Shown one piece after another: positions 2,869-64,000 of a DNA stretch of 64,000 bases. The position numbers and the translations under genes are program-made. The stretch is from assembly GCA_003152315.1 (NCBI GenBank), contig PLZV01000022.1, positions 65,671 through 129,670 of the forward strand, given 5' to 3'. Under the pieces are notes generated by a model that worked only from the letters and a program-made list of their open reading frames with translations, had not been told where the DNA came from and made no database searches. Every line of letters starts with the position of its first letter. The first letter of the stretch is position 1. This DNA comes from Verrucomicrobiota bacterium. Lineage in GTDB: Bacteria > Verrucomicrobiota > Verrucomicrobiia > Palsa-1439.

Positions 2869-2978
2869 ACCCCTCTCTATGTCAAACTTGACGACCCCCT
2901 GAGCCTACAATAAACTGGCCTGGAAGGCAATTAATCTTTCACGAAAAATGTGGCGTTTCTCATCGAAAGTAGCATCTG

Positions 2979-4693
<1,715 letters not shown>

Positions 4694-36402: not shown

Positions 36403-37680
36403 TCACGGGTTGCCGGAAGTGCCCCGTGACGGATAGATCCTGACCTCGGGTATCGGCACCACAAATTCTCCACCCCATTCGCGGATAAACGCCATCTGTT
36501 GCATGATTTCATCTTTGATGTTCCAAGGCAAGATGATGACGTAATCGGGCTTTGTCTCCCGAATCTTGTCCGGATGATGGATCGGGATGTGCGTGCCCGG
36601 CAGAAACAACTTCTGCTTGTGCGGGCTGCGGTCAACAGTGTAGTCGATGAAGTCCGTGCGCACGCCGCAATAATTCAGCAGCGTGTTGCCCTTCGCCGGA
36701 GCGCCGTAACCGACAATCGTCTTGCCGCTGCGCTTCGCGGCAATCAGGAATTCCAATAGCTTGCGCTTGGTCTCTTTGACGCGCTCCGTAAAGGAAAGGT
36801 AGGTATTCAGCTGATCGTAACCGGCCCGCAACTCACGCTGGCGCAAGTCCTCGACGCGAGGTGTGCGGGGCCGTGACTCATCGCTAGTAAGCCGCGCGTA
36901 GATTCGCAGCGAGCCGCCGTGCGTGGGAAGTTCTTCGACATCGAACACCGTGAGTCCATGGGTGCCGAAGATCTTCTCGACCACGAGCAGGGACAGGTAT
37001 TGGTAGTGCTCATGGTACATCGTGTCGAATTGATTGTCCGCGATCAACCGTAACAGGTGCGGAAACTCCATCGTCAGGACACCCTTCGGCTTGAGCAACA
37101 GGCGCAGGCCTTCAACGAAGTCATTGATGTCCGGCACGTGCGCAAGCACATTGTTGCCGATCAGCAGATCGGCTTGACGGCCGCCTCGCGCCAGGTCCCG
37201 CGCGGTTTCTTCACCGAGAAATTTTACGACGGTCGGGATACCCTTCTGCGTCGCGGCGGCGGCGGTGTTGGCTGTAGGCTCGATACCCAAGACGGGAATT
37301 CCTTTCGCAACGAAGTACTGGAGCAGGTAGCCATCATTGCAAGCGACTTCGATAACGTGGTGTTGCGGACCGAGTTGGAGCCGCCCGGTGATCATCTCGA
37401 CATACGCTTTCGCGTGCGCCAACCAGCTATCGGAGAACGAGGAGAAATACGCGTAGCTGTCACTGAAGATATGCCGGGCGCTGATACAATCGGCAACCTG
37501 CACCAGAAGACAGCGGTCGCAGACCTTCACGTGGAGCGGGTAGAATGGCTCCATCTCGCTGAGCTGCGACACATTCCGATAATCATTCGCAATTGGTGAA
37601 GCGCCGAGGTCGAGGAAGGTATGCTCCAGGTCCGCGCCGCAGAATCGACACTGGCCGGGTTTGGTCATGCGGGTCTCCAA
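36403..37680 (-). CDS. NDP-hexose C-methyltransferase-family protein (TylCIII/EryBIII-type; Zn-ribbon + SAM MTase + C-terminal C-MT domain)
   Basis: N-terminal CRFCG...C..C zinc ribbon, VIEVACNDGYLL motif I, C-terminal GYGAPAKGNTLLNYCG nucleotide-sugar binding-like domain. Confidence 0.75.
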   Translation of the reverse strand: METRMTKPGQCRFCGADLEHTFLDLGASPIANDYRNVSQLSEMEPFYPLHVKVCDRCLLVQVADCISARHIFSDSYAYFSSFSDSWLAHAKAYVEMITGRLQLGPQHHVIEVACNDGYLLQYFVAKGIPVLGIEPTANTAAAATQKGIPTVVKFLGEETARDLARGGRQADLLIGNNVLAHVPDINDFVEGLRLLLKPKGVLTMEFPHLLRLIADNQFDTMYHEHYQYLSLLVVEKIFGTHGLTVFDVEELPTHGGSLRIYARLTSDESRPRTPRVEDLRQRELRAGYDQLNTYLSFTERVKETKRKLLEFLIAAKRSGKTIVGYGAPAKGNTLLNYCGVRTDFIDYTVDRSPHKQKLFLPGTHIPIHHPDKIRETKPDYVIILPWNIKDEIMQQMAFIREWGGEFVVPIPEVRIYPSRGTSGNP

Positions 37681-38693
37681 TGAAGGTTTTTATCAATCTG
37701 TGCCGTGCGCAGCAGATGCTCGAGTTGTTTCAGTCGCGTAAACGCGCGAAACTCAAATATCTCTCGTGTCATCTGGATCTTCTCAAACACTCCGTGGAGT
37801 TCCTGCGCGCCCGTGCGCGCGTCGCGCTGGCAGCGGAAACCGGGGAGCCGCGAGTTGATCTTGTCGAAATTAACCCGGTAGCTTCGATTGTCGGCGGCAT
37901 TCGCGCCGAAGCTGAGTCGGCAACCAGGGAACACGTCGGCTACGATCTCCGCGATCTCACGAACACGGTAGTTCTGGCCGTTGTCGCCGACATTGAACAC
38001 TTGATTGTGCACGATCTCGCGAGGCGCATTGAGGGCGCAAGCCACGGCGTCGCAAATATCCAGCACATGCACCAGCGGTCGCCATGGCGTGCCATCGCTG
38101 ATCATCTTGATTTCCTTCGTCGTCCACGCGAGGCCCGCCAGATTGTTCAGCACGATGTCGAACCGCATCCGCGGCGACGCGCCGAAGGCGGTCGCGTTGC
38201 GCAGGAACGTCGGCGAGAAGTTGTTGTCCGCAAGCGCCGAAACGTCACGTTCGACGAACACCTTACATTCAGCATAGGCGGTTTGCGGATTTGTGGGGGA
38301 TGTTTCCGTGACATTCTCGCTGGAGGCAACACCGTAGACACTGCATGAGGACGTATACACGAAGCGTGCGATCCCAACCTCCTTGCATTTTGTGGCCAAC
38401 GCGACACTGCCGCGATGATTGATCTGGAAGGTGAGTTCGGGATTGTGTTGCCCGAGCGGGTCGTTGGATAGTTCTGCGAGGTGGACCACCGCGTCGTAAC
38501 CGCGCAGGTCCTTGTGCGTGATATCGCGAATGTCCTGCTTGATTTGCCGCGCCGGGGGTAACACGCCGTTGTAGAGCAAACCATCACGGTAGAAGCCGGC
38601 ATCCAGTCCGGTGACGTGATGGCCGCGTTTCGCAAGCACATCGGCGAGCAATACGCCGATGTATCCGTCAGTTCCTGTGACTAGTAACTTCAT
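37665..38693 (-). CDS. NAD-dependent epimerase/dehydratase-family protein (likely NDP-sugar epimerase/4-ketoreductase)
   Basis: LLVTGTDGYIG Rossmann, SSCSVYG (Ser, no TDE dehydratase triad), YAECK YxxxK. Confidence 0.8.
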   Translation of the reverse strand: MKLLVTGTDGYIGVLLADVLAKRGHHVTGLDAGFYRDGLLYNGVLPPARQIKQDIRDITHKDLRGYDAVVHLAELSNDPLGQHNPELTFQINHRGSVALATKCKEVGIARFVYTSSCSVYGVASSENVTETSPTNPQTAYAECKVFVERDVSALADNNFSPTFLRNATAFGASPRMRFDIVLNNLAGLAWTTKEIKMISDGTPWRPLVHVLDICDAVACALNAPREIVHNQVFNVGDNGQNYRVREIAEIVADVFPGCRLSFGANAADNRSYRVNFDKINSRLPGFRCQRDARTGAQELHGVFEKIQMTREIFEFRAFTRLKQLEHLLRTAQIDKNLHWRPA

Positions 38694-38723
38694 GTTTCCT
38701 CGTTGCCGGAGTTCTATCCATTA

Positions 38724-39497
38724 TCATTTCCAGATCTTCCAGGGGACGTGGCCTGAGTTCCACAACTCCTCGAGGAGGTTCTTCTCCTTCAGCGTGTCCA
38801 TGCACGACCAGAAGCCAGTGTGCCGGTAGCCCATGAGTTGGCCGGCGTGCGCGAGACGCTCGACCGGTCCGCGCTCCCAGGAACAATCATCGCCGTCGAT
38901 GTAGTCGAGACATTTGCGATGCAAGACGAAATAGCCGCCGTTGATCCAGCCCTCCCGGGCCCCGGATTTCTCATAAAATTCGCGGACCTGGTTACCGTCG
39001 AAACCGATGCGGCCAAAGCGGGCTGGGGAGTGAACGGTGGTAACCGTCGCCAGTTTGCCATGCGCCTGATGGAATTTGATCAGCGACGTGATATCGATGT
39101 CGGCCACACCGTCGCCGTAGGTGAACATGAATGTCTCATCGTCGTCGATCCAATGGGCCAGCCGCTTGAGCCGCCCGCCGGTATTAGGATTGAGGCCGGT
39201 GTCTACAAGGTGGATCTTCCACTTCGGCTGGTTGCCCTTGTGGATACTCACCTTGCCGGTTGCGAGGTCAATGGTCACATCGTTGTTGAACGTATGGAAG
39301 TTCAGAAAGTAATCCTTGATGACCTCGCCGCGGTACCCGAGGGCAATGATGAACTCAGTGACATTATGGGCTGCGAAGATGTTCATGATGTGCCAGAGAA
39401 TCGGGCGTCCGCCGATCTCGACCATCGGCTTGGGTCGCAGGACGGTTTCCTCTGAGAGGCGGGAGCCGAATCCACCAGCGAGGATGATTGCTTTCAT
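38724..39497 (-). CDS. rfbF: Glucose-1-phosphate cytidylyltransferase
   Basis: MKAIILAGGFGSRLSEET..PKPMVEIGG.PILWHIM, near-collinear with Salmonella RfbF including C-terminal GHVPWKIW. Confidence 0.88.
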   Translation of the reverse strand: MKAIILAGGFGSRLSEETVLRPKPMVEIGGRPILWHIMNIFAAHNVTEFIIALGYRGEVIKDYFLNFHTFNNDVTIDLATGKVSIHKGNQPKWKIHLVDTGLNPNTGGRLKRLAHWIDDDETFMFTYGDGVADIDITSLIKFHQAHGKLATVTTVHSPARFGRIGFDGNQVREFYEKSGAREGWINGGYFVLHRKCLDYIDGDDCSWERGPVERLAHAGQLMGYRHTGFWSCMDTLKEKNLLEELWNSGHVPWKIWK

Positions 39498-39564
39498 GTT
39501 GTTACCTCAATACTTCGGCGCGTTCTTTTATAAGTGCTGTTTCCGATGGCGGACCTTCATCAAA

Positions 39565-40944
39565 TCACACTGTTGGCAATGTCTGCAAACGGCTAGCGGG
39601 ATGGAGGATGGACTCGTACCACTCGAGATAGGCATCTACCTGTTGTTCCAGATCGAAACGCGATCGGGCCGCCATGGCGGCACATCGCCCCATGGCGGAT
39701 CGGCGGCTGGTGTCGCGCAGCAACTGCTCGATACGCCCGGCCATGGATTGTTGGTCACCAGCCTCGATCAGGAAGCCGGTTTGGCCTTCATCCACTTGCT
39801 CAGGGATACCGCCCACAGCGGACGCAATGACTGGCCGACCACAGGCCAGCGCTTCCAAGACCGTCGTGGGGAAGGTGTCGGCACGGGCGGCGTGAACATA
39901 GAGATCAGCTGCCTGATAGTACTTCGCCATCTTCGCGGGGTCCGGCTCGAACGGCAGAAAGCGGATCTCGGCATTTCCGATTTTCTCCGGGGGAGACTCC
40001 TGGCCGATCGCCAGGAATAGCAACGGGTGGCCGGCCATCTGTTTTGCCACCGTGATCACCGCTTGATGCAGCATCTGAAAGTCCTTCCAGCGGTTATGGC
40101 GAACGCCGTAAGCCGCGAACATAAGGATGGACGTGTCTACCGGTAGGCCCAATTCCTGGCGGACTGTTCGTTGATCAGCGGGCTTGAACGTGCGCAGATC
40201 CACGCCATTGGGGATAACCCGTTTTTCGATGATCGCGGGTGCGAGGATCGACTGCTCGACCTTTCTCATCAACCATTGCGACGGTGTGGCAATATAGATG
40301 CGTAAGTTTTCGAAAATCTGTTTCTTGCGTCTCCAGTTGTAAGCAGTCCCGTCGCGTTTGAGGGCCGGGTAGATCGTCAGATCGGGACACTGGCCACAGC
40401 CGGTTCGCCACCGGTCACAATCGAAGGAATGCGCGCAATGACCGCTCAGGAGCCAGGCGTCGTGCAAGGTGATCATAAGCGGTGCCTGGCGACTCAGCCA
40501 GGGCAGCATCCGCAGGTCGAAGTAATCTCCTCGAGGTCCGCTGCGGGGGCCGTGGAGGTTGTGGCAATGGACAATATCGGGACTGCCGGGTGTTAGCGCC
40601 AGGAGATCCCGTGTGCCTGGGAAATCGAAGTACTCATGGCCGAATTGCCAATTGAGCCAGCGGCCGGGCTGTGAAAGATACTCCGACCATTGCTTGCCGC
40701 GACCAGCTCCCTTCGTGCTGCCGATGTGGGGACTCAATTTGGCGGCGACATGTGTCCAGAGCCGATACCAGAAGTGCTCGGCATCGGCGTGGTCCAGCGT
40801 TACCACGTTAGGATCGCGCGTACGCTTCGTGCCCACCGCCAGCCACGACTCGTGCCCGAGCTCGCGGTACCGATCAAAGAGCCCGAAGGCCACGCGTTCC
40901 GCGCCACCTGCAATATCGGCTGTGCTAACTTGAAGAATTCTCAT
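39565..40944 (-). CDS. GT4 family glycosyltransferase with Cys-rich insertion
   Basis: MRILQVSTADIAGGAERV N-term, CDRWRTGCGQCPD insertion, C-terminal EALACGRPVIASAVGG. Confidence 0.8.
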   Translation of the reverse strand: MRILQVSTADIAGGAERVAFGLFDRYRELGHESWLAVGTKRTRDPNVVTLDHADAEHFWYRLWTHVAAKLSPHIGSTKGAGRGKQWSEYLSQPGRWLNWQFGHEYFDFPGTRDLLALTPGSPDIVHCHNLHGPRSGPRGDYFDLRMLPWLSRQAPLMITLHDAWLLSGHCAHSFDCDRWRTGCGQCPDLTIYPALKRDGTAYNWRRKKQIFENLRIYIATPSQWLMRKVEQSILAPAIIEKRVIPNGVDLRTFKPADQRTVRQELGLPVDTSILMFAAYGVRHNRWKDFQMLHQAVITVAKQMAGHPLLFLAIGQESPPEKIGNAEIRFLPFEPDPAKMAKYYQAADLYVHAARADTFPTTVLEALACGRPVIASAVGGIPEQVDEGQTGFLIEAGDQQSMAGRIEQLLRDTSRRSAMGRCAAMAARSRFDLEQQVDAYLEWYESILHPASRLQTLPTV

Positions 40945-41921
40945 TATCCATTGCGAACGCAGGCGTGCAACCGTTTGGTAAACTCATCGCCATCCCAGTC
41001 GCGCACCATGAATCGGGGCAACTGGAAAGGGTCTGATTCACAGCGTGTCGCCCGCTCGATGCACGTGCAAGCACCGCTGTAACCAGCCTGACGGACCAGT
41101 TCGATCGTAGGGTTCGCGTAGAACCCGTAGGGATAGGAAAAATCATGAACAGGACGCCCGATCATCTGCTCGAGGGCGATTTTGCCGCCGGAAATCTCCT
41201 CACGTTGAACCGCAAGCTCTTGTTCCGGCAGAAGTGGGTGTGTCACGGTGTGGCCCCCGATATCGATGAGGCTTGTCTTCACCAGGACCGCGAGTTCCTC
41301 GGTGGTCAGTGTCCGATACGGCGGACGAGCCTCGAGGGCGGCACCGGACCATTTCAGGAGCGCATCCATGGTTGCCGTCCGCTGCACCGATGGCAATCCG
41401 CGCAGGAGCTTGTGGACTGTCTGGTACAACTCGTGACGGCGAGCAGGTAGTGATGCCACATCAATATCCCAATGATGAGTGTGTCCGTTGACTTCCAACT
41501 CCAAATGTTGCGGTAGCGGGCCTGACAGGAGCAAGACCTTCTCCAGTTCGTCCCACCAGAACTCACGGGGGTTGTTGATTTGGCCGGTGGTGATGAACAG
41601 GGTGGCCGGAAACTCGTGACGTTCGAGCAGCGGCTTCGCGGCATGGAGATTGTCGGCATAACCATCATCGAAGGTAATCACAACAACATGACGCGGGAGG
41701 CGACCCTGGCGCATCGCGTCCACGCACTGTGGCAGTGACAGGGGCGTGTAGCGCTGTTTGAGGACCGTGAGTTGTTCGGCGAAGTGTCGGGGACTAACGC
41801 ACAACTGGTGCGGATCAATTTCAGTATCCGCGATGCGGTGGTACAAGAGGACGATGGCCTTCGGCGCAACGAGATCCCGTGCCCGCCAAATCGCTCCGCC
41901 TACTTTTTGGGAAAGAAGCAT
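40944..41921 (-). CDS. Polysaccharide deacetylase (NodB homology/CE4)
   Basis: VVITFDDGYADN, HTVTHP motifs. Confidence 0.8.
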   Translation of the reverse strand: MLLSQKVGGAIWRARDLVAPKAIVLLYHRIADTEIDPHQLCVSPRHFAEQLTVLKQRYTPLSLPQCVDAMRQGRLPRHVVVITFDDGYADNLHAAKPLLERHEFPATLFITTGQINNPREFWWDELEKVLLLSGPLPQHLELEVNGHTHHWDIDVASLPARRHELYQTVHKLLRGLPSVQRTATMDALLKWSGAALEARPPYRTLTTEELAVLVKTSLIDIGGHTVTHPLLPEQELAVQREEISGGKIALEQMIGRPVHDFSYPYGFYANPTIELVRQAGYSGACTCIERATRCESDPFQLPRFMVRDWDGDEFTKRLHACVRNG

Positions 41922-41923
41922 TC

Positions 41924-42955
41924 CTAGCCTCGACTGGGCCTTTCTGCAAACGCACGCAGATGGTTACGGACGGAGGAAGGAAGAATCCGTCTCGCGATGC
42001 CACGGGAAGCTGTTTTCGCACGCTGGGCTCTTTTCGAGAATCGGAACAAATGTGGATGGCGGTAGGGCCACAGTTCTTCCTGCAGGGTCTTCCACACTTC
42101 CGTGCCAACCAATCCTGTGCTCCTGAGGTAACTTTCAAGCCAGACCAGATACTCACCACGCGCGGGGCTCGGGCCGTCGTAACTGAGTAAGCCTGTGCGG
42201 AGCGCCACCGCGCAGCTGCCATCGGGATGTTGGCGATACCAAGCCCAACATCCTTCCGCCACAAACACCGGGTAGCGGAGGAGAATCTTCTGGTTCAGCA
42301 CCAGGTCGTCGTACTGATCGCGGAAGGCATCCTCAAATCCGCCCACGGTCTCGACCGCGTCACGACGCAAGAGCATGCTGCACGGGCTTGGCAAGAAGGC
42401 TTCGCTGCGGATGAATTGGTTAGCCAGGGTAGGGGGACTGACCAAAGTATTTGGAGGCACACCAGTTTCTGCCAGGTAATCCCTGGATTGGTCTTCCGGT
42501 TTTCCCGACCAGCTAAACCACACGAGCGTCCGAGTGTACAACATGGCCGCTTCAGGATGCGCCTCCAGGGCCGGTACCTGATTGGCCAATTTACCCGGCA
42601 GCCAGACGTCATCAGCGTCCAGCAAGGCCACATATTCTCCACGCGCATGCCGCAAGCCAAGATTGCGCGCTGCGCTCTTACCGCGGTTCTCGTGACCGGG
42701 ATGCTCCAGGTAATGTATGCGATCCGGGGATTTTGCGGCGTAGTCGCGGGCGAACTGTGAACTACGGTCGGTCGAGCCGTCGTCCACCAGCCACAGTTCC
42801 CAGGTCGGGTAGGTCTGGGCCAGGACGCTTTCAACGGCTTCGGCAAGGAATTTCTCCGCGTTCAGAAAGATGATAATTGTCGAAACCAGCGCCTTGGTGA
42901 CGGGGCGATTGTGTTTTTCCGTGGCCATGGCCTGTTCTGGTGAATGATCGGACAT
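41924..42955 (-). CDS. GT2 family glycosyltransferase
   Basis: VSTIIIFLNAEKFL, LVDDGSTD, LDADD; start at internal Met (MSDHSP) abutting upstream gene. Confidence 0.75.
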   Translation of the reverse strand: MSDHSPEQAMATEKHNRPVTKALVSTIIIFLNAEKFLAEAVESVLAQTYPTWELWLVDDGSTDRSSQFARDYAAKSPDRIHYLEHPGHENRGKSAARNLGLRHARGEYVALLDADDVWLPGKLANQVPALEAHPEAAMLYTRTLVWFSWSGKPEDQSRDYLAETGVPPNTLVSPPTLANQFIRSEAFLPSPCSMLLRRDAVETVGGFEDAFRDQYDDLVLNQKILLRYPVFVAEGCWAWYRQHPDGSCAVALRTGLLSYDGPSPARGEYLVWLESYLRSTGLVGTEVWKTLQEELWPYRHPHLFRFSKRAQRAKTASRGIARRILPSSVRNHLRAFAERPSRG

Positions 42956-43641
42956 CAGCCTCGATGGTGGGGACGGAATTTCAGGTCGCCCACATACGTC
43001 ACTTTGAGGTTGTCGGGGGAACCGGGAACGAGGCGGACCTTGTGCCCCGCTCGTTTGACGACGGCCGCGGTGCCTTCTTCGTTCCAATTGTTGCGTGCCG
43101 CGAGGCGGTTCGCGTGAAGGAGGATTTCCCGTCGGTATGCGTGCGGAATCTGCAGTGCGACAACCGAACGGCGAGGCAGAATCATTTTCAGCCCCTGCTT
43201 TTCCAAAAGACCCAGGCTGTCCCGCACGGGGACTTCCGTGTACAAGGCCACCGCACCGTGGCGTTGCACCTCTGCCAGCAGCCTCTCGAATAACTCGGCG
43301 GTGACAAACGGTCTTGCGACTTCGTGGAGTAGTATAATCGGCTTCGTACAGCACCGCAGGAGGCGGGACAAGGTTTCCTGCCGGGTCGCACCGCCGGCGA
43401 CCACCTGTACGGTTTTCGGCACGAGCCGACGGGCTCGCGCCAGATCCTCGGGTCGTACCCCAACGATGATCTCGGTGGCGAAGGGCGTTACAAGCGCCAC
43501 GGCACGTTCGAGCAGCGTCCGGCCTTCAAGACGAAGAAACGCCTTGGGGCGTCGACCGATACGATCACCCGAGCCGGCGGCCAGGATCAGGACGCTGACG
43601 CAGTCGGGTTTCACTTGCGAAGCGCGATTTACAGTGACCAT
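42955..43641 (-). CDS. IspD/TarI-family sugar-alcohol-phosphate cytidylyltransferase
   Basis: VSVLILAAGSGDRIG..PKAFL motif of IspD/TarI nucleotidyltransferases; adjacent to TagF-like gene. Confidence 0.75.
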   Translation of the reverse strand: MVTVNRASQVKPDCVSVLILAAGSGDRIGRRPKAFLRLEGRTLLERAVALVTPFATEIIVGVRPEDLARARRLVPKTVQVVAGGATRQETLSRLLRCCTKPIILLHEVARPFVTAELFERLLAEVQRHGAVALYTEVPVRDSLGLLEKQGLKMILPRRSVVALQIPHAYRREILLHANRLAARNNWNEEGTAAVVKRAGHKVRLVPGSPDNLKVTYVGDLKFRPHHRG

Positions 43642-44720
43642 AGCCGGGTTATTCCTTGTACGGCACGACGAGCCGCCCACTTGACCTTCCTCGCAGCGAG
43701 GCGCGCCGCAGGTACGCTGGCGAGATAAGACAGGTGATTCGAAGGTATGGTGGCCGCCAGCTTCTCCACGTTATGGCAAAGTCGCTCCACCGCCTTGCCA
43801 TCCGTCAGGTCGCCGAAAAGAAGTTTCCGATAATGCGCGCGGCGGTCAGATCCCCGCACGGGATCGGACAGGGCGGCGGCTACCGTTGCTGGCAATTCTT
43901 CCACGTTTTCAATTTGTCTTCCCATATCTCGCCAACTCCATTCGAAGCCGCGCGGATCGAAATACTCACAGCCGAACCGATCAGGATTGTTGATCAGGAT
44001 CATCGGCCGATCGAGGGCCAGGTAATAGAGTTGGACGCTGGAAGCGTCCGTGATGAGGGCGTCCGCGGCGCGGAGGTAGGGCATCACATCGTCGTTTGCG
44101 TTCGCAACCAGGTGAACGTCTTCGTGCTCGTGCGCGAGACGGCGCCAGGTCTCCATCCATTCCGGGCTCTGTTCGGCGATCAACGGATGCGGCTTGATGA
44201 TGATGGAGATGTCCTGTCGGGAACCGCGAATCAATTCGACCAGACGAGCGCCCAGCATACCCGCTGAAGAAAGAGGACGGTTGAATGTTGGTGCGTAGAG
44301 TACGGTCTTCTGTCCGGGTTTCCGGTCGAACGGCAAAGCCGGGCTGTCGCCGCGAAAGAGAGGATCCAGACCCACGTAGCCAATGACCCAGAAATCCTGG
44401 CGCGGCTTGGAGCCGCCCTGTTGGTACCAGTCCCGCATGAAATCACTTGTCACGCACAGGTAGTCGCATTCGTTGGCGCCCTGGTACGCCACCATCTTGC
44501 TGGCCAGTCCATGTCGCGTGTGAACGAAGATGGTCTTCGGCAGACGCGGTCGCAATTCCCCGAAGATGGCCTCGGCCATGATCGTCACGTGTGGCTGAAA
44601 ATCGAAAAGTGCCTCACGGTTCTCGGTATACAAACACCAATGCCTGCGGCTCAACATTTCGTGGATCGGTCGCAGGATAGCGTCGTGAAACTTATTGCAG
44701 GGAAGAAATGCAACGCGCAT
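43629..44720 (-). CDS. CDP-alditol:polymer phosphotransferase, TagB/TagF (Glyphos_transf) family
   Basis: KTVLYAPTFN, IIIKPHP, LITDASSVQLYYLALDRPMI: TagF-family signature blocks. Confidence 0.72.
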   Translation of the reverse strand: MRVAFLPCNKFHDAILRPIHEMLSRRHWCLYTENREALFDFQPHVTIMAEAIFGELRPRLPKTIFVHTRHGLASKMVAYQGANECDYLCVTSDFMRDWYQQGGSKPRQDFWVIGYVGLDPLFRGDSPALPFDRKPGQKTVLYAPTFNRPLSSAGMLGARLVELIRGSRQDISIIIKPHPLIAEQSPEWMETWRRLAHEHEDVHLVANANDDVMPYLRAADALITDASSVQLYYLALDRPMILINNPDRFGCEYFDPRGFEWSWRDMGRQIENVEELPATVAAALSDPVRGSDRRAHYRKLLFGDLTDGKAVERLCHNVEKLAATIPSNHLSYLASVPAARLAARKVKWAARRAVQGITRLWSL

Positions 44721-44839
44721 ATCACTCTCGTCCAAACCGGGTGAGTGTACTGGCTCGCCTTGAAAATACTGCCGGCCGAAACTGCTCGGCCGAGGGCAGG
44801 CGCGACACTGGCAATCCCGCGAAGACGGTCCGGATGGGC

Positions 44840-45412
44840 CTAGGACGCGTCAACGAGTTGGGAACGGCTGACGATCAATCGGGCCTGGCAACCCAGGGTT
44901 GAAAGCAGAACGGCGACACGATCATGGTCGCTCATCTCTTGCAGCACGACCGCCTGCAAACCGCGCAACGGGCCGTCGGCGATCTCGACGAGATCGCCGG
45001 GGTGAAAGCCGGGGCGTACCGTCACGATATCGACCGCCTCGCCCGCCCATTGCTGGAGTTGCTCGATGATGGAATCATCGACCGGGGTGGGGTGGCCGCC
45101 AAAGCTGACGACCCCGACAACTTGCGGCGCGTATTGCACCGCTCGGAAATTCTGGGCCAGATTCAGACGGCAAAAGAAGTAGCGTGGGAACAGCGGGCCG
45201 ACAATCCAGCGCTTGACGCGGCGGATGGTTTTGAGGTGCTTGAGTCGCGGATAAAAGGTATCGAAGCCGAGTACTTCGCGACAATAGCGCTCGGCGCCGG
45301 CTTCCTTGCGCGGGCGCGTGTGGACGCAGAGCCAGCGCGTGACGTTGGGCAGGGGATCGACGGGGGTGGCGGCCCGTCGGGAACTGGGCTCGTTGTTCAC
45401 AGGATCAATCAT
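44840..45412 (-). CDS. NusG-family transcription antiterminator paralog (RfaH/UpxY-like)
   Basis: N-terminal NGN-like WLCVHTRPRKE, C-terminal KOW-like GDLVEIADGPLRGLQAVV; 190 aa. Confidence 0.72.
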   Translation of the reverse strand: MIDPVNNEPSSRRAATPVDPLPNVTRWLCVHTRPRKEAGAERYCREVLGFDTFYPRLKHLKTIRRVKRWIVGPLFPRYFFCRLNLAQNFRAVQYAPQVVGVVSFGGHPTPVDDSIIEQLQQWAGEAVDIVTVRPGFHPGDLVEIADGPLRGLQAVVLQEMSDHDRVAVLLSTLGCQARLIVSRSQLVDAS

Positions 45413-45563
45413 TGCTCAAATGCCTGCCTTTGTACAGCCCGGGCATGCTGCCGCCATTCCGGTGCATTCTCCCCGCTCCAACGCGAATGCCGGCTGACTT
45501 CCTTCGCCCGTTTGTCGGTTGCCGCACATTGCGGCGCACCATCACTGCTCCACGGGAGGAGCG

Positions 45564-47687
45564 TTACGCGGCGCCATTACCTTTCCGCTTCTTGTGGTAG
45601 TAGGAGTACTTGTACGGATAGTAGTAATATCCGTGCAGTTCCTGGTCGATGTTGTTCATGACCACACCGACGAGCGGAGCGCCGCACTCGCGCAGTCGTT
45701 GCATTGTGCGCGCGACGATTTCACGACGAATTTTGCCAAAGCCAATGACATAAATAACACCTTGCACGTACGGCAACAGCACGAGCGGATCGCTGACTGC
45801 GGTGACCGGCGGGCTGTCAATGATGACGCGGTCGTACTGCTGGCACGCATCGGCGATCAATTCGCGGATGCGGTCGGACGCGAGCAATTCCGGCGCGTTG
45901 GGCGGTATGCTGCCAACGTGAAGTACGTCCAGATTAGGGACGTTCGTCGGTTGGACGACCTCTTGCAAGGTGACGTTGCTGGTCAGGTAAAGTGAGATTC
46001 CCTTGTCGGGGTCGGCCGGGAAGACGTGGTGTTGCACCGGGTTGTGCAAATCACAATCAATCAGCAGCGTACGTTGTTTATTGGTCGCGAACGCGATGGC
46101 GAGGTTGGCGGAAACAACGGACTTGCCTTCTCCGGGCGCCGTGCTGGTGACGAGCAGCGGCTTGGCCGAGTTTGCCTCCGGCTTCAAGCTGATGCTCGCA
46201 CGCAGGTTGCGGAAGGCCTCGGCGGAGATGGAATGCGGATCGGCCTGGAGCACGCGGCCATTCTGGGAAGCATCCTTGAGATCAATGTGCGGCACGCCGG
46301 TGAGCAGCGGTAACCCGAGCGAATCGACGTCCTCGTAGGTCTTGATCTTGTCATCGAACGTGTTGAGCAAATAGCTGGCGGCGAAGGCGGCGCAGACGCC
46401 GAGGAGCAGCCCGACCGCCAAGTTGCGACCTTTCTGCGGCTTGAATGGAGAGCCGGGAACCTGAACGGGATCAATGAGACGGATATTGTTGGATTGCAGC
46501 TTATCGGCGACGCCGGTTTCTTTTATACGGGTGAGGATGGAATCATAAAGCTGGCGGTCAGCCTCGGCATTGCGCTTGAGCATATTGTAATCCGGCTGCT
46601 TGCTATCCATCTCCATCGATTCCTGTTCCTGTTCATGGAGCGCTTTTTGCAGGATTTCCTCATTCGCCTTGGCCATCAAATACCCGGCTTGTAGGGCATT
46701 GATGGCATCGTTGCACGCACTGGTGAGCTTGCCAGAAATCTCGTTCAGTTCGGTTTGGATGGCGACCATCGACGGGTGCTGGTTGCGGTAACGCTCGCGG
46801 AGGACGGCGAGAGTAATCTGTTTGTCGTTCAATTGTTTGCGCAACTCGCTTACCTTCGAGTTGTTCATAATGACCGGGATCTCGGAGGCGCTGCGCCCGG
46901 CATCCAAAAGGGCTTTGACCCCGTTCCATTCAGCTTCAGCGCTGAGGCGCGCTTTTTGTGCCTGGGTCACCGAGTTGTTCAGATCCTTCAGCTTATCGAC
47001 CACGCTGTTCTGGCGTTCCTCGCCGGACTGCGTGCGCTGCCGGTATTCAGCCAAAGCGAATTCGGATTTCTTGACCTTGAGCTTATATTCATCCGCCTGT
47101 TCGCTGAGCATGCGAACGGCGTCGGTCGACGCCAGCATCTTTTTTTCGAGGTTCTGCTTGATGTATTGCTGGGCTACCCCGGTGGCAAGATCCGCGGCCA
47201 GTTTCGGATCGGGATGATCCACGTGAATGTCAATGATGGTGGTGTTACGTTCTGGCACAACGCTGAGACGTCCTTGGAGCGCCCCGGCGAGGTCACCCTG
47301 GGAGCCAGCGTAGGCGAGGAAGCTGGGATTCCTGTCCAGACGGAGCGTCTGGACGACCTGTTCGCACAGGGTGCGGCTCTGCATGATCTTGATCTGGGTG
47401 TTGAAGTATTGGTCGTCACGCGTATCGGTGCTCAATACGTCCTGGATATTCAGCACCTTCATCGTTTCCGATGCCACCTCCAGCGCAGCCGTCGCCCGGT
47501 AAATGGGGGTCTGGTGGTAGGTGTAGATGAGATTGATCGCCAGTACGGTCAGAAACGAAATGAGAGCCACCCATTTGTGTTCGAGGACAATCAGGAGATA
47601 ATGTCGCCAATGCAAACCGACCGTGGGGCGCCGCCCGCTGGGAGCGCGCTGCTGCCCGTTAGGGTTATAGGGAATGAGGGCTTGCAT
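45564..47687 (-). CDS. wzc: Polysaccharide co-polymerase/BY-tyrosine kinase (Wzc/GumC/EpsG-like)
   Basis: N-terminal Wzz-type TM+coiled-coil periplasmic domain, C-terminal Walker A TSTAPGEGKS, Walker B VIIDSPP, C-terminal Tyr cluster YYYYPYKYSYY. Confidence 0.88.
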   Translation of the reverse strand: MQALIPYNPNGQQRAPSGRRPTVGLHWRHYLLIVLEHKWVALISFLTVLAINLIYTYHQTPIYRATAALEVASETMKVLNIQDVLSTDTRDDQYFNTQIKIMQSRTLCEQVVQTLRLDRNPSFLAYAGSQGDLAGALQGRLSVVPERNTTIIDIHVDHPDPKLAADLATGVAQQYIKQNLEKKMLASTDAVRMLSEQADEYKLKVKKSEFALAEYRQRTQSGEERQNSVVDKLKDLNNSVTQAQKARLSAEAEWNGVKALLDAGRSASEIPVIMNNSKVSELRKQLNDKQITLAVLRERYRNQHPSMVAIQTELNEISGKLTSACNDAINALQAGYLMAKANEEILQKALHEQEQESMEMDSKQPDYNMLKRNAEADRQLYDSILTRIKETGVADKLQSNNIRLIDPVQVPGSPFKPQKGRNLAVGLLLGVCAAFAASYLLNTFDDKIKTYEDVDSLGLPLLTGVPHIDLKDASQNGRVLQADPHSISAEAFRNLRASISLKPEANSAKPLLVTSTAPGEGKSVVSANLAIAFATNKQRTLLIDCDLHNPVQHHVFPADPDKGISLYLTSNVTLQEVVQPTNVPNLDVLHVGSIPPNAPELLASDRIRELIADACQQYDRVIIDSPPVTAVSDPLVLLPYVQGVIYVIGFGKIRREIVARTMQRLRECGAPLVGVVMNNIDQELHGYYYYPYKYSYYHKKRKGNGAA

Positions 47688-47692
47688 GGGGG

Positions 47693-48418
47693 TTAAAAAA
47701 TGGTTTCGGGCACGGATACAACGTCATCGGGTTTCAGTCCAACATCCTTGCTCCGGTCTCCACCCTTGATGATGGCGGCGACGTTCACGACGATCTTTGT
47801 AACGCCGCCATTCTCGGTGCGGATGACGGTGATACGGTCGGTAGCCGCTACATCCGTGAATCCCCCCGCTCGCGCGATGGCCTGCACCACCGTGAGCCCT
47901 TCGTCGCCAATGTCGTAGGAACCGGGTGACTTTACCTGGCCGAGAATGACGAGGCGGCGGCTGTTGGGGTGATCCACGAGAACCGTGACCTGCGGGTTGA
48001 CGAGGTAGCTGCGTCCCAGCAAGTCCTTGAGTTTGGTTTCCGTCTCACCAACGGTCAGTCCGCCGACCTGGACGGAGCCAAGAAGCGGATACGTGATATA
48101 GCCTTGCGGCGAGACACGCCTTTGCACGGAAAGGTCAGCCTCGTTGAAGACGGAGACCTGAATCGTGTCCAACGGCTGGATGCGATAATCGTTTTGGACG
48201 GGCGAGGGTTTGTTGGCGGCCGGTTGGGCGTCATGCGGGATGCCCGCTGTGCCTAGCGGAAGTTGTGGCGCACCGGGGGTGACAGTGCGCACCTGTATCG
48301 TTGTCGGGCTGCAAGAGGTGAGTGCCAAGCAAAGCAATACACCCAGCGCCATGTCTGCGTGTGCGAGCGTAGCCTTTCGCGTCCTGTTCAAACTCTGTTC
48401 AGCCTTCGTCATATGCAT
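47693..48418 (-). CDS. wza: Polysaccharide export outer-membrane lipoprotein (Wza/Poly_export + SLBB)
   Basis: Lipobox LALTSC, PLDTIQVSVF...GYITYPLLGSVQVGGLTV (Poly_export), SLBB-like C-term; start uncertain among 3 Met. Confidence 0.78.
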   Translation of the reverse strand: MHMTKAEQSLNRTRKATLAHADMALGVLLCLALTSCSPTTIQVRTVTPGAPQLPLGTAGIPHDAQPAANKPSPVQNDYRIQPLDTIQVSVFNEADLSVQRRVSPQGYITYPLLGSVQVGGLTVGETETKLKDLLGRSYLVNPQVTVLVDHPNSRRLVILGQVKSPGSYDIGDEGLTVVQAIARAGGFTDVAATDRITVIRTENGGVTKIVVNVAAIIKGGDRSKDVGLKPDDVVSVPETIF

Positions 48419-48883
48419 TTTTAGCAAACCTCTACCAGAAAAACTCGTCGATCTTCCAGCGCGGACTCGGCTGGTCGACGGTCGTGGAACGATTTGTTCG
48501 TCTGGCCACCAATCTATCAAATGCCTCATCCGCCACTCGCACCTCAAGCGGCGTTCGCCCCGCTTGATTGTAGCGCAATTATGCTCGTTTTCAAAACTAC
48601 GTCAACCGCAAACCAGCCCGCGTGGGGGCAACTTCGGCGTATCACATTCTATTCAGAAGACTTATCATCAGCGCGCCGCGTGCCAAAAGCCAGTCTTTCC
48701 CTCTTCCGAATGGGTCCTGCGGTGGCCAGAGCCGTAAGTGGGTTCAGGGACGCGGGTTACTGCGAAAAAACGTTTCCAGAGCGGGCTAACGCATGGTCTA
48801 CGAAATAGTTACGTCTGCCTGTTATTGTCCAAAGTTCTGGCCGAGGCGTTCAGTTTGACGACCCACCTTCTCAGCGCAAGCGA

Positions 48884-50035
48884 TCAGAAGTGCAAGAGCG
48901 CATCGACGCTAGCGAGGTCCTGCTCGAAGGAGATCGAAGTTGCGGTCGATGCGTTGTGCTGATAGCGATAGGATGCGCCAAACTCCAACCACTTCGTCGC
49001 GAAATACTTGGCGCCAACCCGGCCCTCCCAAATATTATCTATGCGGCTTACTCCTGAGTATTCATCGTGCTCGTAGGCGCCACCGGCATAGACTAGGAAC
49101 TTCTCCCGGTAAATCTTCTGATTGATCTGAAGATCCGCGCGCGTCGTGGTGACGGAAGTTGAAGCGTTGGTGATCGAGGGACTGATCTGTCGCGCGATCA
49201 CAAGATCCGCGAAGGTGTGTTTCGTAAAATCTCCATGTAACGAGACCGTGCTAACCACGGTGTCAATGCTGGGGCTGGAGCCGGAGAAATCACGATGTTC
49301 ATAGCCGACCCCGATATTGCCCGTGATTTTGCTGGTGACCTTCCCGCGCAGGCCGAGATTTACGGTTTCAAATTGCGCATTCTCGCCCTGCGAGACATCG
49401 GCCAACCCATAATCGAATTCCCCGAATACGTCCGTCTTGGGCGACACGTGGTAGTAGATGGCGACACCGGGTTCGAAGAGTTCATTATCAATCTGCCCCG
49501 GGGTCGGAAAATGATGGAATTCCTGGTGATACAGTGCGCCAAGCGAGAAATACTGGTTCACGCTGTACTCCGCGCTGGCGCTGGTCAGATTCTGCTGTTG
49601 TTCAACGCGCGCACCTGCCTCAAAGTCTTCCGAGGTTTCGTCTTTGAATGTGTGGTCGATCTTTAGTTTGACACGGCTGAACTGAAAAAGACCCTTAAGC
49701 ACCACGTCGTGATTGATGGCATTGAGGGTTGTCAGGCGGTAGAACTCTTCGATCCCCATTGTGTAATCGAGCGACAAGTAATTGTGGTCAAGGTTGCCGT
49801 ATTCCAACTGCAGTCCCGGGCTGACCGTGAAGTAAAAGTCGGCGAGCTGGTTTGCAGAGGAGATCAGCACGTTGTCGTCATAGCTCGACTGGAGGTCGAG
49901 GTGTGGATGAAATTTGATGGGCCAATCATCCATGAGGGCTGCGCGGCTACTACGGCCGGACCACAGCAGGGCGGCCAGCACGAGGACGGTCCAAACTGTT
50001 GCGAGCATTGAGAACCGGTATCGGATGTTATTCAT
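48884..50035 (-). CDS. Outer-membrane beta-barrel protein, EPS-locus associated
   Basis: Signal peptide MNNIRYRFSMLATVWTVLVLAALL, alternating amphipathic beta-strands, C-terminal aromatic (LLHF). Confidence 0.6.
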   Translation of the reverse strand: MNNIRYRFSMLATVWTVLVLAALLWSGRSSRAALMDDWPIKFHPHLDLQSSYDDNVLISSANQLADFYFTVSPGLQLEYGNLDHNYLSLDYTMGIEEFYRLTTLNAINHDVVLKGLFQFSRVKLKIDHTFKDETSEDFEAGARVEQQQNLTSASAEYSVNQYFSLGALYHQEFHHFPTPGQIDNELFEPGVAIYYHVSPKTDVFGEFDYGLADVSQGENAQFETVNLGLRGKVTSKITGNIGVGYEHRDFSGSSPSIDTVVSTVSLHGDFTKHTFADLVIARQISPSITNASTSVTTTRADLQINQKIYREKFLVYAGGAYEHDEYSGVSRIDNIWEGRVGAKYFATKWLEFGASYRYQHNASTATSISFEQDLASVDALLHF

Positions 50036-50437
50036 GGGTGAACCTTTCGCTGTTTCGTTCAAACATGCGGCGGAGTGTAGGGTCAACTACAGGTGCCGAC
50101 AAGTGTGAAATACGTATGCTGGCGTGCCGAGGCCCGCGCAAATCGCCACTATTCCCAGTGCATTCATTGTGGGATACGAAATCCTGCGCCTAATGGTTCA
50201 GCAGGGCCAATGCCGACGTGAGAAGGAGTATTGCCTGCCGGGAAGATGTCCTTCGGCGCGTGAAATACTCAGGAATGAAACCAATGATGATGCGTCGCAG
50301 GTACGAGGTTGTGCTGTACATAATTGTCATGGTGACATTTCTGTTCGGCAGGTGTCTACCGCTCACCAACCAGATGCCGGTGATCCAAACCGGAGCGCGG
50401 GCATCTGCGATGCGGGCGCCAGATAGTGCATTCGCTT

Positions 50438-51535: not shown

Positions 51536-51919
51536 TCAGTACGCGCCCCAGTCGATGCCCACACCATCCAGGGACGACTTGGTCGATGCGTTCACCGCAA
51601 TCTGGGTGCCCCCGACCACGGTGAGTGCATAGGAATTGCCGAGGAGGTCATTTGGTTTCCAAGTGGTCTTCAAGTACGTTTGCGCGGCGACGGTATCGAT
51701 GGTGTTGCCATCCGTCTGCCCGGTCTCAAGAGCCCATTGATTGATGGCGGAATCCATCTGACGGCAGTCGTTCAGGATGCGGCGGCCCTGCGATTGCTTG
51801 CGCGCTTTGACGAAACCTGGAATCGCCAGGGCGGCCAACAATCCAATAATTGCGACGACTATCATTATTTCAACCAGAGTGAAACCCTGGTTATCCCGTT
51901 TGAGATTATTATATCTCAT
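51536..51919 (-). CDS. Prepilin-type N-terminal cleavage/methylation domain protein (type II secretion pseudopilin / type IV pilin-like)
   Basis: GFTLVEIMIVVAIIGLLAALAIP class-III signal; strong SD AGGGAG 5 nt upstream of ATG (MRYNNLK). Confidence 0.75.
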   Translation of the reverse strand: MRYNNLKRDNQGFTLVEIMIVVAIIGLLAALAIPGFVKARKQSQGRRILNDCRQMDSAINQWALETGQTDGNTIDTVAAQTYLKTTWKPNDLLGNSYALTVVGGTQIAVNASTKSSLDGVGIDWGAY

Positions 51920-52048
51920 AACTCCCTCTGCTCCCTTAAGTATGATGTTGATTATTGCTGTTCCCACGGGAGTAATCCGGCAGCACTGGAGATGCCAAAA
52001 GCTAACTAGCGGATAACCCTACTGGTTAGTTTATACTTGGCAACCTAA

Positions 52049-61546: not shown

Positions 61547-61884
61547 TTTTCTCCAAGTACGCCATTAGCCTACCTGAGGTTACGCAGTTTGCAAGCCTAA
61601 TACGGCCTATGTTAGCCTGTGTGGCAGTAACATATTGGCTTGGGAGGGAGCAAACATTATAAGGGTTTTGGCCCTATTAGACGTTTGTTTCCGGTTCAGA
61701 ATCAGGGAAATGCGGGGCTTTTACAGGACCCTGCGTGCGCCAGGACTGGGGACGCGAGAAAAACGAGTGGGAAGATGAAGAGGGGATTCTGGGAGTCTTC
61801 GTTGCCGCCGGGGCGATTCCGCCAGACCCTGAGACTCCTGCCGGGATTGCGAAGAATACCGGGCCTAGTACAGCAAGGCCCTTC

Positions 61885-62286: not shown

Positions 62287-63060
62287 GATGCCTCGTCAGC
62301 CGATGGTCGCTGGCGACGCGAGCAACGAGGCGGCCCATCATGCCGCTACGCATCTTTATCCAGCTTGGCATGCGGCTACTCTATCCTGCCCATTCGGGTC
62401 GGCACAATAGCCACCGGGCCGATTTGTACATCGGACGAATTCCCATACGCTCTCAGCCGATCTCCGAGTAGAAAACCGTCCTCCTACCGATTGTGGAGGG
62501 GCCCGCCATTGGCGTAATAAAGGGAGCGTAAGAACACTCATGAACAACGAGCCTACAGTAGTCGAAGAAAAGAAGGTCGGCCCAAGAATGACCGGGTCGG
62601 CCAGCCATCATCAGGCGGGAGGCGGTTGCCGCGTTGCGTTGCGCAACTCTTCCATTGATGAACATGAGTTTGTATTGAATGTGGTCGGATCAGGGGCATC
62701 AGCGGCGTTAGCGTCGGACTCTCCCCGTGCAATAAACTCGCTTCGTGACTTGTCGCTTCTCCAAGTGCAAGACACCCTCACCAAATTGCACAAACTCGCA
62801 CCGAGCTACCGCCAGTTGATGCCCCAACCACCCTCCTCGTCGCTCTTACCGACTTGGAATTGAGATCCATGAAACGCTTTCAACAATTCCCCAATGAATC
62901 AGCCAAAGTCGGGCAGATCCTGTTTTGGCTGTTTCCGTACGAACAGAGCACGTTTTGCCGTCGCTCGGCACGGGCACGCCGCGAAACCCGCGGTGCCGCC
63001 TATGTTCGCGCATATCAGGAGGCGCGCCAAATCAGTCGCGCCGGGGTCCGATAGACGCAA

Positions 63061-63310
63061 CCACGCGCAGGGGTAAGTCAAGGGAGCGCGTGGGGAGTCG
63101 TCAATCGACAGGGTGAACCTGATGTGAACACGGGCTGAAGCTGCCACCAAGGAAATCAGGGGGGTGGCAGCTCAAGCCGAAAAAAGATGTGCGTCGAGTC
63201 GTAAATCTGGAAGCTGCAGCTGGCGTCAGGGAAAAAAGGGATCGGCCAGCCGCAGCTTCAGAAACATAGGCCGGAACTGCCACTAGGGAAAAGGGAGTGG
63301 CAGCTTCAGT
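63061..63310 (+). ncRNA. Candidate structured RNA / regulatory leader: four tandem hairpins with GGGA-rich loops
   Basis: Hairpins at 63061-93 (8 bp), 63137-73 (10 bp), 63210-59 (14 bp, 1 mismatch), 63274-307 (8-11 bp); loops contain AGGGG/AAGGGA, AAGGAAAUCAGGGG, CAGGGAAAAAAGGGA, UAGGGAAAAGGGA; spacers share GTCGAGTCG motif; strand inferred from GGA orientation only. Confidence 0.3.
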
Positions 63311-63417
63311 CGATAAAAATGAAAGTCTGTCGAGTCGTTCGTCGACAAGCGTAAACGGAAGCATCACGCCTAGACAAATGTCTCTTACGTTAGCCGGGGC
63401 TTTAAGGGTAATCGGGT

Positions 63418-64000
63418 ATGAAAACAGTTGTGCGGGGCCTCGTCGCCTTGGCCTTATTTATCGTCGGCAACGCCGCTCATGGTTTGACCTACACCGCAAC
63501 CAATAAGACGCTGAGTGCCTCGGCCACATTCGCCATCTCCGACCTGAAGCTGGTCATCACGCTATCGAATACCGCCACGAACGACCCGGACAAGAGCGCG
63601 GAAATCCTCACCGGGATCTTTTTCACGCTGGCCGGAGATCCGTCGCTTACTCCGGCTTCGGCATTTCTCGGCACTGACACGGCGATCAAAGTTCGTCCCG
63701 GAGTGAGCGGTCCCGGTATGAACGTTGGCGGCGAGTGGGCTTATCGCAACGATGTGACTGGCCTGCCGCATGGAGCCAACGAGGGCATCTCCAGTACAAC
63801 CCTGAACAAATTCAACCAGCACTTCCGTTTCCCCGGCCCAAACCTTCAGGGACCAGCCGCACCCAGCGGTGTGCAATACGGGGTCACGACGGATTTCGAT
63901 AACCTGGGCAATGACAAGAGTAGTATCAAGCATCAACAGCTCATCGAGAATACGGTCATCTTCACGCTGGGCGGATTACCCACAAATTTCACGCTCGCGG
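63418..64000 (+). CDS. Secreted protein, 3'-truncated by window end (possible PEP-CTERM-type surface protein)
   Basis: ATG at 63418 with AAGGG SD; signal peptide MKTVVRGLVALALFIVGNAAHG; Thr/Asn/Gly-rich beta-rich mature region; ORF open to window end. Confidence 0.55.
   Translation, partial: MKTVVRGLVALALFIVGNAAHGLTYTATNKTLSASATFAISDLKLVITLSNTATNDPDKSAEILTGIFFTLAGDPSLTPASAFLGTDTAIKVRPGVSGPGMNVGGEWAYRNDVTGLPHGANEGISSTTLNKFNQHFRFPGPNLQGPAAPSGVQYGVTTDFDNLGNDKSSIKHQQLIENTVIFTLGGLPTNFTLA

Follow-up and report, generated by a model that had tools for sequence, protein, structure and literature searches.

What does a row of four stem-loops with G-rich loops do when it lies directly upstream of a gene for a surface protein? 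The question is raised by the end of a 64,000-nucleotide stretch of DNA from a Verrucomicrobiota bacterium (contig PLZV01000022.1; the whole stretch is called the window below), where an initial annotation had described four tandem hairpins with GGA-containing loops before a secreted-protein gene, here named xdd4, and had proposed either a free CsrA-sequestering small RNA (sRNA) of the CsrB/RsmY/RsmZ type or a long structured leader with several CsrA sites. We find that the hairpins are a selected RNA structure of the sense strand, and that their loop motif is shared with the start sites of the genes downstream. The best reading of the array is a 350–500-nt untranslated leader, or intercistronic spacer, of xdd4 that acts in cis. 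As to its function, we give a probability of about one half to the array being a multivalent platform for an AGGG-specific trans-acting factor, which would also occupy the start site and gate translation and mRNA stability.

The four hairpins (HP1 to HP4; Table 1) sit where they had first been placed, as judged both by an inverted-repeat finder (repeats I17, I2, I1 and I3) and by folding, and their loops, of 17, 14, 20 and 11 nt, are as purine-rich as had been claimed, being almost entirely purine. Folded alone, HP1 to HP4 reach −15.2, −27.6, −28.5 and −17.7 kcal/mol, with z-scores against dinucleotide shuffles of −3.8, −4.3, −4.0 and −2.7, respectively. The stem pattern CTGCCAC..GTGGCAG occurs three times in the window, where 0.02 occurrences are expected. 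The array region has a strong purine skew (GC skew +0.2, AT skew +0.3) and, in agreement with the initial annotation, a lower GC content than its surroundings, although the difference is modest (0.51–0.56 vs ∼0.58–0.64). No U-tract terminator, likewise, is present on the plus strand from 63061 to the ATG. Two other parts of that description require revision. The loops contain six GGA and not eight or more; the feature that occurs eight times is the G tract, as seven runs of at least three G plus one AAGGA. The direct repeats have a period of ∼136 nt (repeat families D2–D4) and not of ∼70 nt, because two different hairpin types alternate, each ∼136-nt unit consisting of a type-A hairpin, a spacer with GTCGAGTCGT and a type-B hairpin.

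HP3, the type-B hairpin, has a conserved 6-bp core (GCUGGC/GCCAGC) that extends to ∼17 bp in the species of the window. HP1 is a degenerate first unit; the region around it is conserved across species, in which the stem is weak, and its perfect stem is present, besides the window, in only one of the populations compared, the closely related L163 (L- and P-numbers are our own labels). A third, smaller type of hairpin follows HP4 and encloses the second and last copy of the spacer motif GUCGAGUCGU (63329–63338). Beyond the end of the window, the spacer between xdd4 and the next gene, pep2, holds a fifth hairpin (HP5), a perfect type-A copy reading CUGAAGCUGCCAC-CAGGGAAAUCAGGGA-GUGGCAGCUUCAG (−27.7 kcal/mol, z −5.7). 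This part of the locus was reached by extending the sequence with metagenome contigs of the same species that are 99.5–100% identical.

Homologues of the XDD4 protein put the host organism among uncultured Verrucomicrobiae, and the orthologous loci of at least 12 related populations in this group bear three to six hairpins each. In four of these loci (L012–L015; orthologues at 65–76% identity) the gene order is the same, with a divergent cbs gene followed on the other strand by rep, small, a long spacer, xdd4 and pep2, and in all four the hairpin arrays occupy the small–xdd4 spacer. A scan of metagenomes with the type-A pattern added ∼22 further loci. Across loci the leader is 348–500 nt long and carries three to six hairpins, with types A and B alternating and conserved spacers, including GUCGAGUCGU, between them. 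Complete leaders all end their array with a type-A hairpin, ∼105–110 nt upstream of the ATG. HP5, in the next intercistronic spacer, is a single further type-A copy. The type-A consensus is GCUGCCAC-Y-[AGGGAAAWMAGGGA]-GUGGCAGC with up to 16 pairs, and that of type B is GCYGGC-NNN-[AGGGRAAWAGGGAUC]-GGCCRGC.

Selection on the stems was assessed in an alignment of 48 distinct type-A copies over 16 pairs, with 500 column shuffles as the null. Altogether 89.6% of the cells are paired, and 10 of the 16 pairs show compensatory changes on both sides, such as C-G to U-A in columns 15/38 (eight copies) and U-A to G-C in columns 13/40. None of the 500 shuffles reaches the observed values, although such statistics overstate significance, the copies being paralogous units in related genomes and not independent. 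Sliding the 3′ partner by 1–3 columns lowers the pairing to 20–57%. In type B, pairing of the 6-bp stem reaches 99.4%; 14 cells are G.U, and three double changes are compensatory. While the stems vary, both GGG tracts of each loop are near-invariant in both hairpin types, and this combination of variable, compensated stems with fixed loops is unambiguous despite the non-independence of the copies. The comparison across homologous loci that had been suggested for the hairpins therefore shows that their stems covary. Conservation is not limited to the hairpins: the last ∼160 nt of the leader are 62–81% identical, vs 47–68% at the four-fold sites of xdd4, in 10 of 10 species pairs.

The same alignment distinguishes the two strands. 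G.U or U.G pairs outnumber A.C or C.A combinations by 57 to 21 overall and by 37 to 9 in pairs 8–18, and in the seven innermost stem pairs (columns 12–18) there are 22 G.U and no A.C. In the metagenome loci, all copies are oriented as the flanking genes are. Because of the G.U excess and the single orientation, the hairpins are formed by the RNA of the sense strand. Two A.C mismatches in HP2 and HP3 had at first suggested that the minus strand was functional, a view that the 48-copy alignment reversed; the minus strand folds with the better z-score (−7.5 vs −3.3 for the plus strand). An array of protein–DNA operators was rejected on the G.U excess and the compensatory changes, which point to RNA, and a coding function of the array was rejected on loop lengths that differ by 1–3 nt between close relatives.

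The loop motif recurs in linear form at the start codon of xdd4. Two G tracts stand 5 nt apart there (4–7 nt in the loops), the first at Shine-Dalgarno distance and the second abutting the AUG, whose first base, 63418, directly follows the end that had been given to the element (63417). Over 18 distinct variants the 25 nt before the AUG are nearly invariant, reading GGCAUUAAGGGYAAUAGGGAAUG in 15 and a close variant in the other three. In the consensus fold the start region is left unpaired, and it folds no more than expected (z +0.86). It had been remarked that the Shine-Dalgarno sequence of xdd4 also contains a GGA-like site; the twin G tracts are indeed shared with the loops, but the window's copy (AAGGGUAAUCGGGUAUG) holds no GGA, while 16 of the 18 orthologous variants have AGGGAAUG, with one GGA. 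The start of pep2, downstream of a single hairpin, is a looser form with two tracts (UAGGGUUAAUAAAAGGGAG-N4-AUG).

More distant XDD4 genes, from other Verrucomicrobiia and at 40–47% identity, have AAAGGGYAUUCRGGGU..AUG at their start together with one covarying hairpin that carries a GGGUAG hexaloop. In three such loci (L019, L025 and L028, ∼2945–3003; 42–44% identity) this hairpin reads GGGNGUGYUC-GGGUAG-GRRCACNCCC, changes in a compensatory manner between loci and lies ∼15–20 nt before the start region. It may represent a simpler, ancestral form of the array.

Together these observations separate the two halves of the first interpretation. The long structured leader is borne out by an element formed by the sense-strand RNA that adjoins the ribosome-binding site directly, lacks a terminator and has a copy in the next spacer. 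The free CsrB/RsmY/RsmZ-type sRNA has to be given up, since there is no terminator, no Rfam match at E ≤ 10 and in all cases a fusion to the start of a coding gene. Rfam 15 gave no match in the whole window at gathering thresholds, and at E ≤ 10 the interval 62800–63600 returned only chance microRNA and small nucleolar RNA matches; the scan that had been recommended thus found no CsrB, CsrC or RsmX/Y/Z. A covariance model of the type-A hairpin, run with filters off on both strands of the window, detected only HP2 (61.2 bits, E 4e-13), HP4 (58.3 bits) and, weakly, HP3 (23 bits). In metagenomes the ∼27 true matches all fall in the cbs, rep–small–array–xdd4–pep2 locus and in sense orientation, the remainder being isolated chance matches, and among 67 genome loci with XDD4 relatives only one, the close relative L016, has the array. 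The scenario of a widespread element resembling repetitive extragenic palindromes (REPs) can accordingly be set aside, as there are no further copies in the 64 kb, one locus and one orientation. The element is locus-specific and confined to a narrow uncultured clade of soil Verrucomicrobiae, and the leader is a previously undescribed conserved structured RNA that may well qualify as a new RNA motif. Our literature search found no paper in which CsrA control, or a leader of this kind, is tied to PEP-CTERM genes or to Verrucomicrobia, and no studied Csr system for Verrucomicrobiae.

How might such a leader work? In the mechanism that we favor, at even odds, each stem would hold open a purine loop that displays two A-GGG tracts 4–7 nt apart, and a trans-acting factor with specificity for AGGG(A) would bind these loops with high affinity. 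The more plausible candidate is a dimeric or multivalent protein of the CsrA/Rsm kind that binds RNA, a C-rich sRNA being less likely. By also binding the unpaired start region, the factor is predicted to control how translation of the surface-protein genes is initiated and, secondarily, how stable their mRNA is. The three to six upstream hairpins could then tether the factor and load it onto the start site, or compete for it in cis and so set a threshold. Factor binding, the nature of the factor and the sign of the regulation are predictions.

Several points weigh against this proposal. No trans factor was identified in the searches described below, and that the array is transcribed within the mRNA is itself deduced only from the asymmetry of the strands and the order of the genes. 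With four occurrences in the window, against two expected, the linear twin motif reveals no wider regulon. AAGGG is a plausible weak Shine-Dalgarno sequence, and part of the conservation at the start site may be ordinary. Stable intercistronic hairpins can function without any binding factor, and the shared ancestry of the hairpin copies, as stated above, inflates the shuffle statistics.

Elsewhere in the window, the start of a prepilin-type (N_methyl) gene at 51916–51945 (minus strand) reads CUUAAGGGAGCAGAGGGAGUUAUG, with twin G tracts as at xdd4. This is suggestive only of another target of the same putative factor, the motif count being not above chance.

It is possible, though we hold this tentatively, that the array belongs to an undescribed system of post-transcriptional control for PEP-CTERM/XDD4 proteins in Verrucomicrobiia that is unrelated to CsrA, in which the binder reads paired AGGG tracts and an array of start-site mimics sets the threshold. 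The binder would in this case be a new RNA-binding protein or a C-rich sRNA. Across the XDD4 start codon, the paired AGGG tracts would have persisted while the proteins diverged by more than 50%, and the hairpins would have multiplied in this clade, where they might compete with the real start site or load it. A C-rich partner was sought in the window, where pairs of C tracts are not enriched and no complementary C-tract RNA is evident. Read on the minus (mRNA) strand, an 8-bp hairpin at 61774–61803 has a loop, CUCCCAGAAUCCCC, with complementarity to the twin G tracts. None of the four other species compared has this hairpin, which is probably a chance occurrence and was rejected as a partner. 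The loops are also unlikely to join in a G-quadruplex, as a loop closed by Watson-Crick pairs forces its G strands to be antiparallel. RNA quadruplexes disfavor antiparallel G strands.

That the factor is CsrA/RsmA itself, with dimers that bridge the GGA sites of the loops and the Shine-Dalgarno region as in glgC, pgaA and hag, is in our view unlikely. The multi-site architecture, with motifs in hairpin loops, fits known CsrA targets, A(N)GGA occurs at least once in every one of 76 aligned loops and twice in 59 of them, and most species have a related motif at the start site. What is conserved in the loops, however, is an AGGG core, and the invariant bases are the G triplets rather than GGA. 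In 10 of the 48 type-A copies a U or C follows the second tract, so that the second motif of these copies (AGGGU or AGGGC) lacks GGA, as do the start region of the window and the GGGUAG loop of the distant XDD4 leaders. The loops are also large, at 11–20 nt, and their two sites are ∼9 nt apart from center to center. Going by published work on dual-site RNAs, a spacing of ∼9 nt is at or below the minimum that one CsrA dimer can bridge. A tblastn search with three CsrA/RsmA queries gave chance-level matches, and no hfq or proQ was found; these searches covered the window and short flanks and are uninformative for the rest of the genome.

The main alternative, which we consider quite unlikely, is a purely passive architecture, in which stabilizers or processing barriers and a purine-rich, C-poor leader resistant to RNase and Rho would ensure high expression of the abundant surface protein without any factor. 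Very stable stems 5′ of xdd4 and directly after its stop codon, the strong purine skew and a hairpin number that varies from three to six, as expected for additive elements, speak for it. It leaves unexplained why the loops are more conserved than the stems, why G tracts at fixed spacing occur in both hairpin types and why the motif returns at the start codon. As ribosome standby or enhancer sites, the loops would show SD-like AAAGGG (SD, Shine-Dalgarno) that captures the 30S subunit near a start site in an SD-poor genome. The CCUUU that is usual at the 16S 3′ end could pair with AAAGGG, and in a crude survey, whose start calls are unreliable, few genes of the window have an SD-like upstream sequence and no general GGGAG/AGGGA ribosome-binding site appears. 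This role is nonetheless improbable, since the motif reads GGGAG/AGGGA instead of GGAGG, the first loop tract (YAGGGA) and the AGGGAUC of type B are poor anti-SD partners, and the second tract at the start site abuts the AUG and is too close for an SD.

The product of small, a 61-residue, Arg-rich protein encoded immediately upstream, could in principle bind the hairpins as a peptide, as in lambda N/boxB or Tat/TAR. Its gene ends 6–90 nt before the array in every array-bearing xdd4 locus, and it has 9–14 Arg/Lys with a conserved RRxxRxxRxxR pattern and a predicted long helix. The gene is clearly protein-coding, the changes between species being mostly synonymous over the first 30 codons. In a profile search, however, small matches the first ∼40 residues, the cytoplasmic part, of single-pass membrane proteins of 260–289 amino acids, in which a basic stretch, a single membrane helix and an outer part rich in Ser/Thr/Pro come next. 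Array-free loci have rep with small (L205) or rep with a full-length membrane protein (L203), one contig (L107) retains a hairpin though the small ORF is lost, and the AlphaFold2 model has low confidence (predicted local distance difference test score of 57), with no confident fold. On these grounds small was downgraded as the RNA-binding partner, a role that is now very improbable. We also note that, in the array clade, small appears to be truncated right before the membrane helix, where the hairpin array starts. The protein encoded by rep resembles only weakly the N-terminal region of MurF (E about 1e-5; JGI labels its homologues MurF), which lends no support to an RNA-binding role, and it was rejected as a partner.

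Least credible of all, and by a long way, are a free CsrB/RsmZ-type sponge sRNA, with which the multi-hairpin look is compatible but which the missing terminator, the lack of an Rfam match and the constant fusion to the start site contradict; a dispersed repeat like a REP or a miniature inverted-repeat transposable element, for which genuine REP elements and genes resembling REP-associated tyrosine transposases (RAYTs) lie nearby but which would not be undispersed and in one orientation only; a DNA operator array of the NarL-type regulator, whose two-component system is encoded next door but against which compensatory changes and the G.U excess favor RNA over protein–DNA recognition; and a chance repeat, given an array conserved above four-fold sites.

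Table 1. Positions of the hairpin array, the flanking genes and other features discussed in the text. Positions refer to the window unless a locus label is given.
Feature	Position	Strand	Description
HP1	63061–63093	+	8-bp stem CCACGCGC/GCGCGUGG; loop AGGGGUAAGUCAAGGGA
HP2	63133–63178	+	type-A; core stem 63139–63148/63163–63172; loop AAGGAAAUCAGGGG
Spacer motif GUCGAGUCGU, copy 1	63193–63202	+	between type-A and type-B hairpins; conserved across species
HP3	63206–63262	+	type-B; loop GUCAGGGAAAAAAGGGAUCG
HP4	63269–63311	+	terminal type-A; loop AGGGAAAAGGG
Third hairpin type	63325–63350	+	CUGUCGA-GUCGUUCG-UCGACAA; stem covaries between species
xdd4 start region	63404–63420	+	AAGGG-UAAUC-GGGU-AUG; UUUAAGGGUAAUCGGGUAUG; predicted unpaired
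xdd4	63418–64000	+	XDD4-family PEP-CTERM gene; cut by window end; 276 aa in full
rep ORF	62540–62863	+	107 aa; opens the same-strand unit; lies outside the RNA element
rep 5′ module	62440–62539	+	
rep 5′ module	L107 4440–4390 and 4870–4810	minus-strand reading	
rep 5′ module	L186		
rep ORF, other locus	L003 9178–9747	−	
rep ORF, other loci	L012 2871–3440; L014 2633–3349		
small ORF	62869–63054	+	61 aa; N-terminus ILFWLFPYEQ invariant; Arg-rich tail; stop 6 nt before HP1
small-related sequences	P0208–P0212; L203 5001–5870; L205 1974–2192		
Exopolysaccharide cluster	36403–50086	−	polysaccharide export protein; chain-length determinant/tyrosine kinase; PEP-CTERM-associated outer-membrane protein; several glycosyltransferases
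tRNA/RAYT region	L001 5200–5950	−	∼2.5–3.5 kb past window end

The gene after the array, xdd4, encodes an XDD4-family exosortase-dependent surface protein (NCBIfam NF045504, 168 bits vs a cutoff of 40, E 2e-49), whose full-length form has a PEP-CTERM tail ending in VIPEPGTSVLIATGLLWTFALVRR, and pep2, which begins 107 nt past xdd4, is a second PEP-CTERM gene (DUF4114-like). The divergent neighbors encode a CBS-pair protein, a PAS-GAF histidine kinase and a NarL-type response regulator. A long same-strand cluster for exopolysaccharide export and chain-length control, of the XrtA/PEP-CTERM type, occupies 36403–50086, which places the surface-protein operon ∼13 kb from an exosortase-type exopolysaccharide locus.

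Upstream of the array, rep encodes a module of ∼80 amino acids (..DVVGSGASAALVSDSPRAINSLRDLSLLQVQDTLTKLHKLAPSYRRLMPQRP) that occurs in one to four tandem copies across strains; there is one in the window, two in other strains of the same species and in L012 and L013, and three in L014. A strain-level length difference of ∼150 nt falls within rep. A conserved 5′ module precedes rep in all species (AAAACCGUCCUCCNACCGAUUGUGGAGRGGCC..GUAAUAAAGGGAGCGUAAGAACA-AUG) and contains a small hairpin (CCUCC/GGAGG); two rearranged contigs have this module also before a different, 300-residue PEP-CTERM gene that follows a single type-A hairpin. Between the CBS gene and the kinase gene, at ∼61548–61640 on the minus strand, a block that five species share in near-identical form (UUAGGCUUGCAAACUGCGUAACCUCAGGUAGGCU..GUACUUGGAGAAA) resembles a promoter or a leader.

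A few kilobases downstream lie REP-like palindromes and RAYT-like genes, with sequences unrelated to the G-tract hairpins. A tRNA-Lys(UUU) gene (L001 5859–5934) is followed by an ORF of 181 codons that reaches the Pfam threshold for Y1_Tnp (IS200-like/RAYT). On the flanks of this ORF the palindrome TGTAGGGCGCGCGGCCCGCGCGCC occurs in several copies, and L001 1191–1652 holds a second Y1_Tnp gene.

To our knowledge, almost nothing has been described of post-transcriptional regulation in Verrucomicrobiota, nor of any control beyond transcription of the abundant PEP-CTERM/exosortase surface proteins. The locus offers a compact RNA element with clear covariation, a defined motif and a start site with the same motif as read-out. 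If the binder is CsrA, a new phylum would be added to those with Csr-type control, and exosortase cargo to its targets; with any other binder, the hairpins could be used as bait for a new G-tract-specific regulator. The narrow uncultured clade limits the immediate reach of the element.

Among known systems, stable intercistronic stem-loops with variable tandem copy number are familiar from REPs and bacterial interspersed mosaic elements and from stabilizer hairpins such as those of malE-malF and the puf operon, whereas the present array has one locus, one orientation and loops more conserved than its stems. It differs from lambda N/boxB in its 11–20-nt loops and in having no terminators predicted downstream in the leader, and the Arg-rich stretch of small is C-terminal and matches the juxtamembrane segment of the longer homologues. 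Cis-acting operator mimics, such as the thrS operator and ribosomal-protein leaders, are alike in that leader elements and the start region share recognition features; these copy tRNA or rRNA, and their binder is the product of the gene, whereas here the start site itself is copied. Autoregulation is unlikely at the present locus because the downstream products are secreted surface proteins. The TwoAYGGAY RNA motif (RF01731) also consists of hairpins defined by a conserved GGA-containing loop, but it has one AYGGAY per loop and two hairpins, is found in other taxa and gave no model match here.

CsrB, CsrC, RsmX, RsmY and RsmZ (RF00018, RF00084, RF02144, RF00195 and RF00166) share with the array tandem hairpins with GGA loops and the multivalency that these provide. 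The array is different in lacking a terminator, in its fusion to a coding start and in matching none of these models at E ≤ 10, and its loops are twice as large, with paired G tracts. The closest parallel is with the CsrA-controlled leaders of glgC, pgaA and cstA in E. coli and of hag in B. subtilis, which likewise act in cis, expose several A-N-GGA motifs in loops and have a related motif that overlaps the Shine-Dalgarno region, with control of translation initiation as the expected outcome. The Verrucomicrobiae leader departs from these in its three to six long-stemmed hairpins (up to 16 bp) with two motifs per large loop, in the alternation of two hairpin types within a ∼136-nt unit, in its AGGG core and in the second tract at the AUG. 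The array would work most like a CsrA-type multi-site leader, although it falls short of that family's defining features where these could be compared, and it is best filed as a variant of the protein-binding structured leader.

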